Of a stretch of 53,863 nucleotides of DNA, positions 22,418 through 51,420 are shown piece after piece. Position numbers and translations under genes: made by a program. The notes under the pieces were generated by a model. The model was not told where the DNA came from, did no database searches, and worked only from the letters and a program-made list of their open reading frames with translations. Position 1 is the stretch's first letter. Each line of letters begins with the position of its first letter. The DNA is from Patescibacteria group bacterium (GTDB taxonomy: Bacteria; Patescibacteriota; Minisyncoccia; UBA6257; 2-01-FULL-56-20), in the NCBI GenBank assembly GCA_024654525.1, contig JANLHI010000015.1:1-53863 (forward strand). Reading direction: 5' to 3'.

Positions 22418-22445
22418 ACTATATACAATATCAAATATGAAAAAC

Positions 22446-22473
22446 TTGAAAACTCAAGCAATCACGTTATAAT
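22446..22473 (+). promoter_or_regulatory. Sigma70-type promoter for the tRNA-Asn locus
   Basis: TTGAAA (22446..22451), 16-nt spacer, TATAAT (22468..22473), 10 nt before the degenerate tRNA 5' half. Confidence 0.7.
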
Positions 22474-22483
22474 GGAAACGCAT

Positions 22484-22553
22484 TCTGGCGCCTGTCTACC
22501 GATAGGTAGATAGCTCAGCGGTACCTGCCTGCCGGCAGGCAGGGAGCGGCTCC
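22484..22553 (+). pseudogene. Degenerate 5' half of tRNA-Asn interrupted by two 20-nt insertions
   Basis: tctggcg[cctgtctaccgataggtaga]tagctcagcggta[cctgcctgccggcaggcagg]gagcggctcc. With the inserts removed it matches nt 1-30 of the intact tRNA at 29/30. Confidence 0.92.
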
Positions 22554-22560
22554 AAAGCCC

Positions 22561-22800
22561 ATGATTACAATCTATGCGCTACGAAGCCAAAAAGATGGAA
22601 GAATTTATGTCGGGATGACTGAAAATTTGCAACGCCGGATGGCAGAACATAACCAAGGATTGGTCTTTTCCACAAAAGGATTCTTACCTTGGAAAATTAT
22701 TTACCGTGAAGATGCTCCTGACCGAGTAGCCGCGAGAAAAAGAGAAAAGTTTCTGAAAGGCGGTTCGGGAAAAGAGTATCTCAAAAAGATTCCGGCGTAG
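22561..22800 (+). CDS. Small stand-alone GIY-YIG nuclease (79 aa)
   Basis: TIYAL..IYVGMTENLQRRMAEHN..YRE..ARKREKFLK. Its last codons and TAG lie in tRNA nt 1-10. Confidence 0.9.
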   Translation: MITIYALRSQKDGRIYVGMTENLQRRMAEHNQGLVFSTKGFLPWKIIYREDAPDRVAARKREKFLKGGSGKEYLKKIPA

Positions 22801-22865
22801 CTCAGCGGTAGAGCGGCTCCCTGTTAAGGAGATGGTCGCAGGTTCGATCCCTGCCGCCGGAGCCA
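22791..22865 (+). tRNA. tRNA-Asn (GTT)
   Basis: Acceptor TCCGGCG/CGCCGGA, D arm GCTC/GAGC, anticodon loop CT-GTT-AA, T arm GCAGG-TTCGATC-CCTGC, discriminator G, encoded CCA. Confidence 0.96.
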
Positions 22866-43442: not shown

Positions 43443-45731
43443 ATGGCGGTCACACTTACCACACCGCTTTCCGAATTTTCTCACGTCACCAAACGCATTT
43501 TGGGACATCTTGGACGCATGGGAATATACACCGTGCATGACCTCCTCTACCACTTCCCCGTCCGTTACGAGGATTTTTCCGAAATCCGTCCAATTGCCGA
43601 ACTTGATGCGGGAGAACAAGTCACCATACAAGGAATAGTTGAGAATGTTTCCATGCGCCGGAGCTGGCGACGTCACATGACCATTATCGAAGCGACAATC
43701 AGCGATCAAAACGACACTATCCGCGCAATATGGTTCAACCAACCATATCTCGCACACACATTCAAACAAGGAATGTGGTACAACTTTTCCGGAAAAGTTT
43801 CAATAAAAGAAGAGGGAGTTTTCCTTACTAATCCCTCATTTGAATTCCTTCCCCACGGACCCGACGAGATATCCGAACAAAACCTACCCACAAATAATTT
43901 ACGTCACACCGGAAGATTGGTACCGATTTATCCCGAAACCCGCGGACTCACTTCGAAGGGAATCCGTTTTGTTATCTTCCCCATCTTGGAACATCTTTTG
44001 AAAATTCCCGACTATATACCGGAATCAATACGCGCGCGGGAAAAACTCCCCGGCATTGCAGAAGCACTCAATGCAATCCACTTCCCCAACACACTCGATG
44101 ATGCACTCACCGCGAAGCGAAGATTCTCTTTCGAAAACCTTTTCCTATTACAAATGGTTAATCTTCGGGATCGTATGATGCTTGCGCACGAATCCGCCCC
44201 CGCAATTCCCGTATCCATAGAAACAATCAAAGAAAAATTGGGATTACTTCCCTACACCCTCACCACATCTCAAAAAAAATCATTGTGGGAAATATGCCAA
44301 GACATTGCGGAACCTCATCCCATGAACCGCCTTCTCCAAGGCGATGTCGGATCGGGTAAGACGGCACTTGCCGCAATCGCGGCGCTCCTTACTTCGGATG
44401 CCGGATTTCAAGCCGCATTTATGGCTCCTACAGAAATTCTTGCACGCCAACATTACGCAACATTCATGCACCTTCTTTCAAACTCTCCTCTCAAAGTCAC
44501 GATAGCCCTCTTCACATCGAAGGAATCGAAAATATGCTATGGACAAGATCTTGAACAAGAAATTCCAAAAAAGAAAATGTTGCAATGTATCGAAAAAAAA
44601 GATGCGCAGATTGTTATCGGAACTCACGCTCTTCTTGGAAACACGGTTCACTGGAATAAATTGGGACTTGTCGTAATCGACGAACAGCATCGTTTTGGCG
44701 TGAAGCAAAGAGCTGCACTTATTCATTATGATGACGACAATAAAAAACAAAATCGCCGTCGCAACCAGACATCATATTCCATGCCTCATTTTTTAAGCAT
44801 GTCAGCAACACCAATTCCAAGAACGCTCACCCTCACGGTTTTTGGTGACCTAGACCTTTCCACAATCACCGAACTTCCCCCGGGAAGAAAACCGATAAAA
44901 ACATATAGTATCCCTCCGGAAAAACGCGCAGCAACTTATGCATTTATCCGAAAAAGTATAAAAGAAGGACGCCAAGTATTCGTGATATGTCCCCGTATAG
45001 AAAAAACCAACCCCGCGTCCGAATCAAATGTACCCAAAAAAAATATAAAGCCTTTCGGATCGTTTGGATGGAACTCTCATGCGACAAATACATTAGAGGT
45101 GAAAACAGTTACTGAAGAATATGAAAAACTTTCAAAAAGGATATTCCCTGACCTCCGCGTCGCAATGTTGCATGGAAAAATGCCCGCAAAAAAAACTCCC
45201 GCGTCCGCAGGAAAACCGACAAAGGAAAGCGTAATGAGAAACTTTAGAGAGGGGAAAATAGATATTCTCGTCTCCACAACGGTAATTGAAGTGGGTGTCG
45301 ATGTTCCAAATGCCACCATCATGATGATAGAAGGAGCGGAGCGTTTCGGACTTGCACAGCTCTACCAACTTCGCGGACGCGTAGGACGCGGCGCCCATGA
45401 ATCATATTGCTTCCTTTTTACCGACTCTCCTTCCGCCACGGGAACTTCGAAATCGGGAGGCATCAACGCACGTCTTAACGCAATTACCACCGCAAAAAAC
45501 GGATTTGAGCTTGCGGAATACGACCTTAAACAACGCGGACCCGGGGAATTTTTGGGCACCACACAAACCGGATTCCCCGATATTGCCATGGAGGCACTGA
45601 TGGATCCGCCTCTCATAAGCGCCTCACGTGAAGCAGCGAAGGAAACTCTTCGTAGTGATCCAGAGTTAAAAAAGAATATTCCCCTTCAAAAGAAGCTCTC
45701 TCAATTTGCAACGTCGCTTCACTTAGAATAG
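43443..45731 (+). CDS. recG: ATP-dependent DNA helicase RecG, with several loop insertions
   Basis: HFPVRYED, RLLQGDVGSGKT, MAPTEILARQH, IDEQHRFG, SATPIPRT, STTVIEVGVDVPNA, FGLAQLYQLRGRVGRG, RGPGEFLG. Confidence 0.96.
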   Translation: MAVTLTTPLSEFSHVTKRILGHLGRMGIYTVHDLLYHFPVRYEDFSEIRPIAELDAGEQVTIQGIVENVSMRRSWRRHMTIIEATISDQNDTIRAIWFNQPYLAHTFKQGMWYNFSGKVSIKEEGVFLTNPSFEFLPHGPDEISEQNLPTNNLRHTGRLVPIYPETRGLTSKGIRFVIFPILEHLLKIPDYIPESIRAREKLPGIAEALNAIHFPNTLDDALTAKRRFSFENLFLLQMVNLRDRMMLAHESAPAIPVSIETIKEKLGLLPYTLTTSQKKSLWEICQDIAEPHPMNRLLQGDVGSGKTALAAIAALLTSDAGFQAAFMAPTEILARQHYATFMHLLSNSPLKVTIALFTSKESKICYGQDLEQEIPKKKMLQCIEKKDAQIVIGTHALLGNTVHWNKLGLVVIDEQHRFGVKQRAALIHYDDDNKKQNRRRNQTSYSMPHFLSMSATPIPRTLTLTVFGDLDLSTITELPPGRKPIKTYSIPPEKRAATYAFIRKSIKEGRQVFVICPRIEKTNPASESNVPKKNIKPFGSFGWNSHATNTLEVKTVTEEYEKLSKRIFPDLRVAMLHGKMPAKKTPASAGKPTKESVMRNFREGKIDILVSTTVIEVGVDVPNATIMMIEGAERFGLAQLYQLRGRVGRGAHESYCFLFTDSPSATGTSKSGGINARLNAITTAKNGFELAEYDLKQRGPGEFLGTTQTGFPDIAMEALMDPPLISASREAAKETLRSDPELKKNIPLQKKLSQFATSLHLE

Positions 45732-50534: not shown

Positions 50535-50621
50535 GGATTTCCACTTGACTTTTCTTTTTCGGTTGGTAACATGGAGGTACAAGTGCCTTCGGGCTCGCCC
50601 TGCGCAAGCAGGGAGATAAGT

Positions 50622-51064: not shown

Positions 51065-51370
51065 TCACGACTTTCTCGCTTTTAAATCCTTATTATGGCT
51101 ATTCGTGAGACCCCGCACCTTGTCCAAACCACACCGCTTCTTCAGTTCCTGATACGCCTTCCCGAAATATTTTAGTTGCTTTTCTCGCTTCCGCGCACAC
51201 CATTCGTGAAGATACGCTTCGTAATACACGAGTGATACGGGAAGGCGATACTTCGTAGCAAATACCGAGCCTTGGCGATGTTCATCAAAGCGCCTCTGTA
51301 AGTCGTTCGTTGAACCGATATATAATTTCTCATCGCGCTGGCTCTTCAACACATACACATAGTACATCAT
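51065..51370 (-). CDS. Small stand-alone GIY-YIG nuclease (101 aa including read-through tail)
   Basis: MMYYVYVLKS..LYIGSTNDLQRRFDEH..YYEAY..ARKREKQLK. Confidence 0.92.
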   Translation of the reverse strand: MMYYVYVLKSQRDEKLYIGSTNDLQRRFDEHRQGSVFATKYRLPVSLVYYEAYLHEWCARKREKQLKYFGKAYQELKKRCGLDKVRGLTNSHNKDLKARKS

Positions 51371-51385
51371 GGACAAGGTGCGGGG
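51111..51385 (-). mobile_element. Putative 275-bp GIY-YIG mini-element with 16-bp terminal inverted repeats and 5-bp flanking direct repeats
   Basis: TGAGA[ccccgcaccttgtcca ... tggacaaggtgcgggg]TGAGA. The inverted repeats are perfect and overlap the ATG and the C-terminal LDKVRG codons. Confidence 0.75.
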
Positions 51386-51420
51386 TGAGATAAAAACGGG
51401 ATTAACAAGCTCAACACGAA

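Follow-up and report, generated by a model that had tools for sequence, protein, structure and literature searches.

A precisely inserted 20-nucleotide DNA hairpin with a likely link to small GIY-YIG nuclease genes lodged in tRNA genes

Introduction

REPs are short GC-rich palindromes, and the palindromes of REP/BIME and IS200/IS605 systems are recognized as single-stranded hairpins; insertion of the IS200/IS605 type takes place 3' of a specific tetra- or pentanucleotide and leaves no target duplication. Among GIY-YIG nucleases, T4 SegB is a free-standing homing endonuclease encoded in a tRNA gene cluster. Seg proteins are multidomain and about 200 amino acids or more in length, and we know of no signature hairpin or rebuilt tRNA half at seg genes. 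The closest precedent for hairpin-sized mobile DNA is provided by the SDRs, which to our knowledge are confined to one cyanobacterial group, are unrelated in sequence to the hairpin described here, and have no known enzyme. These small dispersed repeats of the Nostocaceae (SDR1-8), reportedly described by Elhai et al. in 2008, are said to be hairpin-forming sequences of 21 to 27 nt that are precisely inserted, can sit inside tandem heptamers, other repeats, or further copies of themselves, and carry compensatory mutations.

Single-domain GIY-YIG enzymes of the Ssn family bind hairpin repeats in single-stranded DNA (ssDNA) (Chenal et al. 2025, Nat Commun 16:2388, PMC11893778). They cut just 5' of the hairpin repeat, and SsnA-type enzymes do not bind RNA; ssn genes are flanked by hairpin repeats, homologues differ in specificity, and the authors likened the arrangement to an insertion sequence (PMC11893778). 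That paper nowhere mentions tRNA and does not describe precise insertion polymorphism of the hairpins (PMC11893778).

Two hairpins in a displaced tRNA-Asn half

The window, a stretch of 53,863 nucleotides, is contig C20 of a 0.99-Mb genome with 45% G+C in 33 contigs. The locus considered here comprises the following features:

22446-22473, + strand: sigma-70-like promoter, TTGAAA-16-TATAAT (11 of 12 positions match), just 5' of the displaced tRNA half
22483-22490, + strand: displaced tRNA-Asn 5' half, piece 1, position -1 and acceptor-strand nucleotides 1 to 7, TTCTGGCG
22491-22510, + strand: insert 1 (P2), CCTGTCTACCGATAGGTAGA, CCTG followed by TCTACC-GATA-GGTAGA, a covarying variant of the hairpin element
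22511-22523, + strand: displaced half, piece 2, nucleotides 8 to 20, the 5' strand of the D-stem and the D-loop, TAGCTCAGCGGTA
22524-22543, + strand: insert 2 (P), CCTGCCTGCCGGCAGGCAGG, the canonical 20-nt perfect palindrome
22544-22553, + strand: displaced half, piece 3, nucleotides 21 to 30, GAGCGGCTCC
22561-22800, + strand: open reading frame for a single-domain GIY-YIG nuclease of 79 amino acids (PF01541, E value of 9.5e-14, 51.9 bits)
22791-22865, + strand: intact, intron-less tRNA-Asn(GTT), the single tRNA found in the window by ARAGORN

From 22482 to 22553 the sequence thus reads ATTCTGGCG, CCTGTCTACCGATAGGTAGA, TAGCTCAGCGGTA, CCTGCCTGCCGGCAGGCAGG, GAGCGGCTCC. When both 20-mers are removed, the joined flanks give ATTCTGGCGTAGCTCAGCGGTAGAGCGGCTCC, which matches the start of the intact tRNA-Asn (22788-22820) at 31 of 32 positions; piece 1 carries one C-to-T change, and the homology stops where the anticodon loop starts. 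No base is duplicated or missing at either insert, and neither junction can be slid. An earlier note on this DNA had proposed two precise 20-nt insertions into a dead tRNA half whose ancestral state lies nearby. The coordinates are correct, and the intact tRNA-Asn supplies the uninterrupted 5' half.

The second insert, P, consists of CCTG and the 16-nt core hairpin CCTGCC-GGCA-GGCAGG and sits at the boundary of D-loop and D-stem, 17 nt 5' of the GIY-YIG start codon. Insert 1 is, as had been claimed, its relative by six transitions (positions 5, 8, 12, 13, 17, and 20). The calculated chance expectation for a variant of P with six transitions and no transversion is about 0.03 per genome, and 100 dinucleotide shuffles of the window gave no match. 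Folded as DNA, insert 1 has an energy of -4.5 kcal/mol (z of -4.6) and insert 2 one of -8.0 kcal/mol. The two are members of a single family of hairpin micro-elements. Two other places that the note had listed as related cores fall outside it: the sequence at 50590 is a different 16-nt hairpin (CCCTGC-GCAA-GCAGGG), and there is no palindrome at 45198.

In the 79-amino-acid protein, the Pfam match covers residues 2 to 71 and is to PF01541 alone; NCBIfam gave only subthreshold matches, and the closest PDB sequences, Slx1 and UPF0213, are weak (E value of about 0.05). Y5, Y16, R26, and E62 are its invariant active-site residues. Its C-terminal ARKREKFLKGGSGKEYLKK motif is common to other P-linked copies, and it is 51% identical to the corresponding protein of G014, the two that were compared. 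The TAG stop codon of the gene falls within the first bases of the rebuilt tRNA. The window holds a second small GIY-YIG gene (51065-51370, - strand) with neither P nor a tRNA close by; its core lies between the two arms of a 16-bp inverted repeat, ACCCCGCACCTTGTCC (51110-51125 and 51371-51386).

A conserved cassette that rebuilds the tRNA gene

In two genomes of the same genus, G001 and G004, the orthologous position is occupied by a tRNA-Asn that shares the upstream flank (acgcattccggcg) and has no cassette; the flank "acgcattc" upstream of the window locus is orthologous to that of the uninterrupted tRNA-Asn of G001. This comparison identifies the "dead" half as the chromosome's own former 5' half and the working one as having come in with the GIY-YIG gene. 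The promoter at 22446-22473 probably served the original tRNA-Asn gene and would by now drive the GIY-YIG gene as well. The cassette order is a tRNA promoter, the original 5' half split by one or more hairpins, 13 to 24 nt, a GIY-YIG gene of about 80 codons, and the rebuilt tRNA. The same layout is present in decayed form at a tRNA-Leu cassette of the window's genome (C18:28071-28325) and also in G014, G005, six metagenome contigs, one viral contig, and across phyla. The two 20-mers of the window are fixed parts of this conserved cassette and not random hits.

Other inserts were seen in tRNA genes. The tRNA-Asn of G001 and G004 has an intron of about 210 nt in the anticodon loop, an intron-like insert placed after anticodon nucleotide 34 (L141, G001:C4:32200-32900; L142, G004:C12:2150-2850). 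Two further tRNA-Asn loci, L168 and L205, have both the intron-like insert and the GIY-YIG cassette; in the window's genome, tRNA-Asn has the cassette but lacks the intron. Elsewhere in that genome, a tRNA(CAT) without annotation (C1:34091-34355) holds a 209-nt insert. In its tRNA-Ser and tRNA-Val GIY-YIG cassettes (C2:7199-7290, - strand, and C16:13250-13312), the dead 5' half is interrupted in the D-arm by hairpins of about 41 to 42 nt that are unrelated to P, in tRNA-Val exactly between ttag and ctcag; dead halves thus generally hold a hairpin, of a type that varies with the nuclease subfamily. Four more tRNA genes of the same genome (Leu, Pro, Arg, and Ser) are followed 120 to 155 nt downstream by a 16- to 22-nt copy of their own 3' end (C2:10980-11243, C2:18434-18644, C25:53231-53439, and C15:3771-4010). 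The Leu, Pro, and Arg repeats bracket a conserved element of about 110 nt (..GGGTCGGG.AAACGGGAG...GGAG.GTAGCGACGT), and the tRNA-Ser insert differs from it in look; the bracketed element seems to represent another type of insert lodged in tRNA genes, one that lacks an open reading frame.

The upstream hairpin is conserved and covaries

All eight tRNA-Asn cassettes carry CCTG-TCT(A/G)CC-GA(C/T)A-GGTAGA at one and the same site. Three pairing registers are open to P. Insert 1 has lost the full one but retains the two shifted registers of 6 bp each (1-6/11-16 and 5-10/15-20). In its most frequent form, insert 1 has five transitions, and of the 15,504 possible sets of changes only 16 (about 0.1%) would retain both. 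Triple covariation at positions 5/12/20 was found in L211 (CCTGACTACCGTCAGGTAGT) and L271, and intermediates with G-T pairs are present in G014 and the window. The upstream copy, read from these alignments, is a long-lived variant with compensatory base changes, which points to constraint on the hairpin itself. The note had taken the two inserts to be of different ages, but insert 1 is not decaying, and its conservation in eight diverged cassettes together with the compensatory pattern rules out a randomly decayed old copy. The variant is present in 5 of 151 genomes, with at most one copy each, and the exact insert-1 20-mer of the window also occurs as a solo copy in the genome of an unrelated family.

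Copy number and distribution of P

The suggestion that the 20-mer represents an ultra-short palindrome family is borne out by its multiple copies, its presence in many phyla, and its precise insertion. A scan of the window's genome with variants allowed found 4 perfect copies and about 13 variants (about 17 in all), so that the sequence is not unique to this site; 13 of the 17 are identical to the consensus or differ by transitions only. Exact P was found in at least 120 genome stretches in a scan of one genome per species, against about 0.5 expected. These belong to Patescibacteria, Bacteroidota (isolates included), Omnitrophota, Planctomycetota, Pseudomonadota, Chloroflexota, and others, and none of the 80 listed record titles was labeled cyanobacterial. 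Among the isolates are Winogradskyella echinorum, Flagellimonas yonaguniensis, and Longitalea luteola. Viral contigs contributed 35 stretches with exact P. Across the order, 73 of 151 genomes hold P at up to one mismatch, with 0 to 43 copies each and a patchy distribution even inside genera; the reversed-sequence control gave no match in the 151 genomes. About 90% of the copies have neither a GIY-YIG gene nor a tRNA anywhere near them.

Several individual copies are unusual in form or setting. In G076, 13 of the 18 one-mismatch copies are altered at the same base pair, the loop-closing G8/C13, which reflects either a mutation hot spot or a propagating subfamily; the same 8/13 variant is dominant in G098 and G057. 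The G076 copies (e.g., C34:6200-6239; L289, L292, and L294) include one locus with a head-to-head dimer of P that forms a 40-nt perfect palindrome, and several are carried within a larger repeat of about 100 nt (L289, L292, and L294). In one viral contig (L198:2239-2330), P lies exactly in the variable loop of a tRNA-Met(CAT) that is intact in all other respects. There it would make an extra arm like that of class II tRNAs, and ARAGORN recognizes the gene all the same, as a 92-nt tRNA.

Precise insertion, targets, and turnover

P enters DNA precisely, with no duplication or deletion of the target, as shown by more than 10 pairs of filled and empty sites that were compared with paralogous tRNAs and with orthologous sites in relatives. 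Insertion is precise relative to an adjacent intact tRNA in the window, in L037 (tRNA-Lys), L106 (Gly), and L083 (Ser), and also in L118, L001, and L004 (Leu). The inserted unit can be the 16-nt core alone: in the groES-groEL spacer of the window's genome, the core CCTGCCGGCAGGCAGG stands between gcatta and ttcgcg, and the same-genus genome G002 has the precise empty site. Target duplications typical of MITEs, which would have pointed to another kind of element, were found at none of the more than 10 sites whose empty state is known. P is a dispersed repeat whose presence or absence differs between close relatives; G001 has a copy at a site that is empty in the window's genome and a decayed copy at a site that is full there. 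Directly left of the groES-groEL core, a 74-nt sequence (C16:167450-167528) is itself a repeat, with dozens of copies in G002 and G004.

Landing sites include tRNA-gene fragments, the tips of other hairpins, short tandem repeats (at unit boundaries in L050, L058, L082, and L101), and genes, where P is in frame; nested or tandem copies of P also occur. The apex of a perfect inverted repeat of at least 6 bp holds 12% of exact copies, against 3% of controls (p = 1e-5), an enrichment and no rule that P always lies in hairpin loops. Next to 124 exact copies, position -1 is A in 44% and position +1 is T in 39%, and the flanks contain neither a conserved word nor an oriented, nonpalindromic sequence. 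The target rule that the note had hoped to derive from empty sites thus came to many precise pairs but only this weak A/T preference; a sequence-specific target for solo copies was rejected, with several trinucleotides enriched about 3-fold at most. Inside the cassettes, insert 2 is canonical in sequence yet turning over. Depending on the cassette, it follows either ggta or ggtaga; the L172 and L173 copies have decayed, and nested hairpins split the one in L170.

Within coding sequence of the window's genome, P was seen with the frame kept at C16:107509-107748 and C32:9420-9439. A disordered N-terminal extension of RNase J contains four copies (4 x 20 + 1 = 81 nt, reading PAYRQAG three times), and an alpha/beta-hydrolase contains a 21-nt version that is missing in G004 and variant in G001.

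Association with small GIY-YIG genes

Five of the eight GIY-YIG matches in the 120 loci listed lie at most 101 bp from P, about 20-fold above expectation, and in 331 kb of viral contigs the sole GIY-YIG match is 19 bp from P. When 60 small GIY-YIG genes were sampled across the order, P was upstream of 9, in each case within a tRNA 5' half, where it lies at the D-loop's 3' end, 13 to 24 nt from the start codon. All nine proteins share AR(K/E)REK(F/Y)LKSGxG(K/R)E and fall in a few related clades; with P as a label, the protein tree requires 4 changes, against 8.6 in shuffles, and none of 500 shuffles was as low. The separation of P-linked from other GIY-YIG genes is clear only with the 60-gene sample and was not so with the first small set. 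GIY-YIG subfamilies without P have upstream motifs of their own.

Co-occurrence points the same way, with P in 67 of 119 genomes that have a small GIY-YIG gene and 6 of 32 that have none (odds ratio of 5.6, p = 1.4e-4, kinship ignored). The PF01541 count had been tried as a proxy for small GIY-YIG genes and was rejected because of contamination by UvrC, so the genes were counted with a profile built from small proteins; 12 genomes with at least six PF01541 matches hold no P. In the other direction, G076, which is 99% complete, has 25 perfect and 18 one-mismatch copies of P with no small GIY-YIG gene or remnant of one, only UvrC, and no gene was found to recur beside P there. G081, G130, and G054 likewise have UvrC-type matches only and no small GIY-YIG gene. 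The 43 copies in G076 contradict the GIY-YIG protein as an obligate factor.

The adjacent GIY-YIG protein had been named as one candidate enzyme. That proposal is favored by cis linkage, clade specificity, and co-occurrence and fails, on G076, in its obligate form. From these genomic patterns, a link between P and the small GIY-YIG genes is likely, and the clade specificity could be mere co-inheritance of P with the cassette lineage. Outside the tRNA genes, at one locus (L060:3861-4169) P and a GIY-YIG domain interrupt, in frame, the conserved central part of a type I restriction specificity gene (hsdS), with P at the left junction of the GIY-YIG insertion, which implies that the unit of P and GIY-YIG is not restricted to tRNA genes.

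Proposed role of the hairpin and alternative explanations

By analogy with the Ssn nucleases, P may be the cognate ssDNA hairpin site of the P-linked clade of mini GIY-YIG proteins, a tentative reading to which we give a probability of roughly 0.45. The enzyme is predicted to bind the extruded hairpin and to nick beside it; host repair or ligation would then lead to precise gain and loss of solo hairpins, and the same nicking and repair would help the cassette persist or move. A bolder proposal, which we consider unlikely, is that the 16- to 20-nt hairpin is a complete mobile unit, cut and pasted in single-stranded form by the GIY-YIG protein of about 80 amino acids that recognizes it. The same enzyme-hairpin pair would drive or stabilize the lodging of the nuclease gene in tRNA genes, and coevolution of enzyme and site together with horizontal transfer would account for an identical 20-mer from Patescibacteria to Bacteroidota and phage contigs. 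Against the reading of P as a cognate nuclease site, GIY-YIG enzymes hydrolyze DNA, and we know of none that joins strands, so that the insertion chemistry has no basis known to us.

Doubtful, though a possibility to be reckoned with, is that P spreads independently of GIY-YIG proteins, by another enzyme, by replication or repair acting on hairpins, or by hitchhiking in larger repeats. Its copies in tRNA halves would then be there by descent; the inserts break the 32-nt direct repeat that flanks the gene and would guard against deletion, so that interrupted cassettes would survive preferentially. G076 fits such spread well, with 43 copies, some of them in the repeat of about 100 nt, and neither a small GIY-YIG gene nor a recurrent open reading frame, as do the 6 of 32 genomes that hold P without a small GIY-YIG gene and the preponderance of solo copies. 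Each of the four upstream-type cassettes of the window's genome has its dead half interrupted by some hairpin, and in two the hairpin has no relation to P, so that an interruption of any kind may be enough. The shift of the second insert between ggta and ggtaga suggests repeated independent hits. Yet the place of P is constant across tRNA species (Asn, Lys, and Leu by ARAGORN, and class-II-type halves), whereas solo copies have no comparable target word, and P is limited to a few related GIY-YIG clades. The copy at the GIY-YIG junction in hsdS has no tRNA repeat to protect. Elsewhere in the window's genome (C1:34883), an uninterrupted direct repeat of about 70 nt persists around another GIY-YIG gene, which shows that interruption is not required.

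It is also conceivable, but rather improbable, that P is mainly a functional cis-element, an RNA leader hairpin or a DNA site for protein binding, whose copies arise from selection and conversion. At the RNA level, a hairpin in the 5' leader would stabilize or gate GIY-YIG translation and block pairing of the dead half with the real tRNA. The compensatory changes pass through G-T (G-U) intermediates on the sense strand in G014 and the window, the distance from P to the start codon is fixed, a promoter-like site lies upstream, and the junction of P with the D-stem creates AGGGAG, a Shine-Dalgarno-like sequence 13 nt 5' of the ATG. Insert 2 is, in addition, identical at 20 of 20 positions in cassettes whose genes have strongly diverged. 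A cis-element nevertheless leaves unexplained the solo copies in open reading frames, tandem repeats, hairpin tips, and spacers with precise empty orthologous sites, as well as the identical sequence across phyla; against an RNA-level role, SsnA-type enzymes lack RNA binding (PMC11893778). The other enzyme that the note had put forward, a RAYT/HUH (Y1) transposase encoded elsewhere in the genome that would move P as a REP-type element, is very improbable. The window's genome does have one Y1_Tnp (PF01797) match (C7:5818-6054), but contig C7 holds no P; order-wide, Y1_Tnp occurs in 23 of 73 P-bearing and 21 of 78 P-free genomes (p = 0.59), which leaves 50 of the 73 P-bearing genomes with none, among them the P-rich G008 (28 copies), G021 (24), G155 (23), and G053 (18). 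REPs, as in textbook accounts, share with P the short GC-rich palindrome, and IS200/IS605 insertion the lack of target duplication, but no specific tetra- or pentanucleotide target was found for P. That the 20-mers are an artifact of assembly, adapters, or chimeras, a thought raised by the same 20-mer in many unrelated metagenome-assembled genomes, has a negligible probability given the copies in isolate genomes, the lineage-specific variants and compensatory changes, the open frames kept inside genes, and the empty reversed-sequence control in 151 genomes.

Implications

If the link to GIY-YIG proteins holds, the nuclease-hairpin pairs known from Ssn would extend to a new class of hairpin with a clean 16- to 20-nt palindromic site, and such hairpins would themselves be gained and lost precisely, which bears on how repeats multiply. 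It would also tie the hairpins to an undescribed cassette that colonizes tRNA genes yet leaves them intact. In practical terms, an ssDNA nuclease this small that acts at a defined palindromic site would be a candidate for use as a molecular tool. Should the hairpin by itself prove to be mobile as a whole, no smaller transposable element would be known, and the GIY-YIG fold would gain a new transposition chemistry. Annotators should be alert to in-frame inserts and to spurious peptide segments (PACRQAG/LPAGRQ) that stem from copies of P, and dead tRNA halves with P can serve as markers of the cassette in metagenomes.

Comparison with known systems

Searches of the literature for the 20-mer and for GIY-YIG with tRNA in Patescibacteria found no description of P or of the tRNA-lodged cassette. 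MITEs have terminal inverted repeats and target-site duplications, are about 50 to 500 bp long, and derive from insertion sequences, whereas P is 20 or 16 nt long and makes no duplication. T4 SegB resembles the present system in that a GIY-YIG gene with the behavior of selfish DNA lies among or next to tRNA genes, but Seg has a DNA-binding domain for a long double-stranded target, and the P-linked protein of 79 amino acids is the catalytic domain only. With REP/BIME-RAYT and IS200/IS605 systems, P shares a short palindrome, the lack of target duplication, and one gene for many solo copies. It differs from them in having no association with a Y1 transposase and no defined tetra- or pentanucleotide target, and its unit is a single hairpin of 16 to 20 nt, neither a doublet (REPIN) nor an element with two distinct ends. 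P resembles the SDRs in precise hairpin insertion, nesting in repeats, and compensatory mutations; unlike them, it is identical across many phyla and viral contigs and has ties with a nuclease gene and with tRNA halves.

The Ssn systems (NTS/dRS3 and the "Ssn-related motifs" [SRM]) have in common with P a single-domain GIY-YIG protein of about 80 to 95 amino acids, a gene linked to a short GC-rich hairpin repeat that has many solo copies besides, a correspondence of different protein subfamilies to different hairpins, and some repeat-rich genomes without the gene. Ssn-related motifs are 20- to 50-nt multicopy hairpin inverted repeats, and P, with about 17 copies in the window's genome, is a stable DNA hairpin of this kind; they flank a single-domain GIY-YIG gene of about 80 to 100 codons, as P does on the upstream side only. 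The published search sequence, HGTCWYN(0-2)YYVSBRHN(0-5)WNVSBRGN(0-2)RNCYNB, has no match on either strand of window positions 22440 to 22600 and a single match in the window's genome, away from GIY-YIG genes, and P was rejected as a member of that motif. SsnA needs an oriented flank, whereas P is a perfect palindrome without one, and the P system further differs from Ssn in that its gene is lodged in a duplicated tRNA gene.
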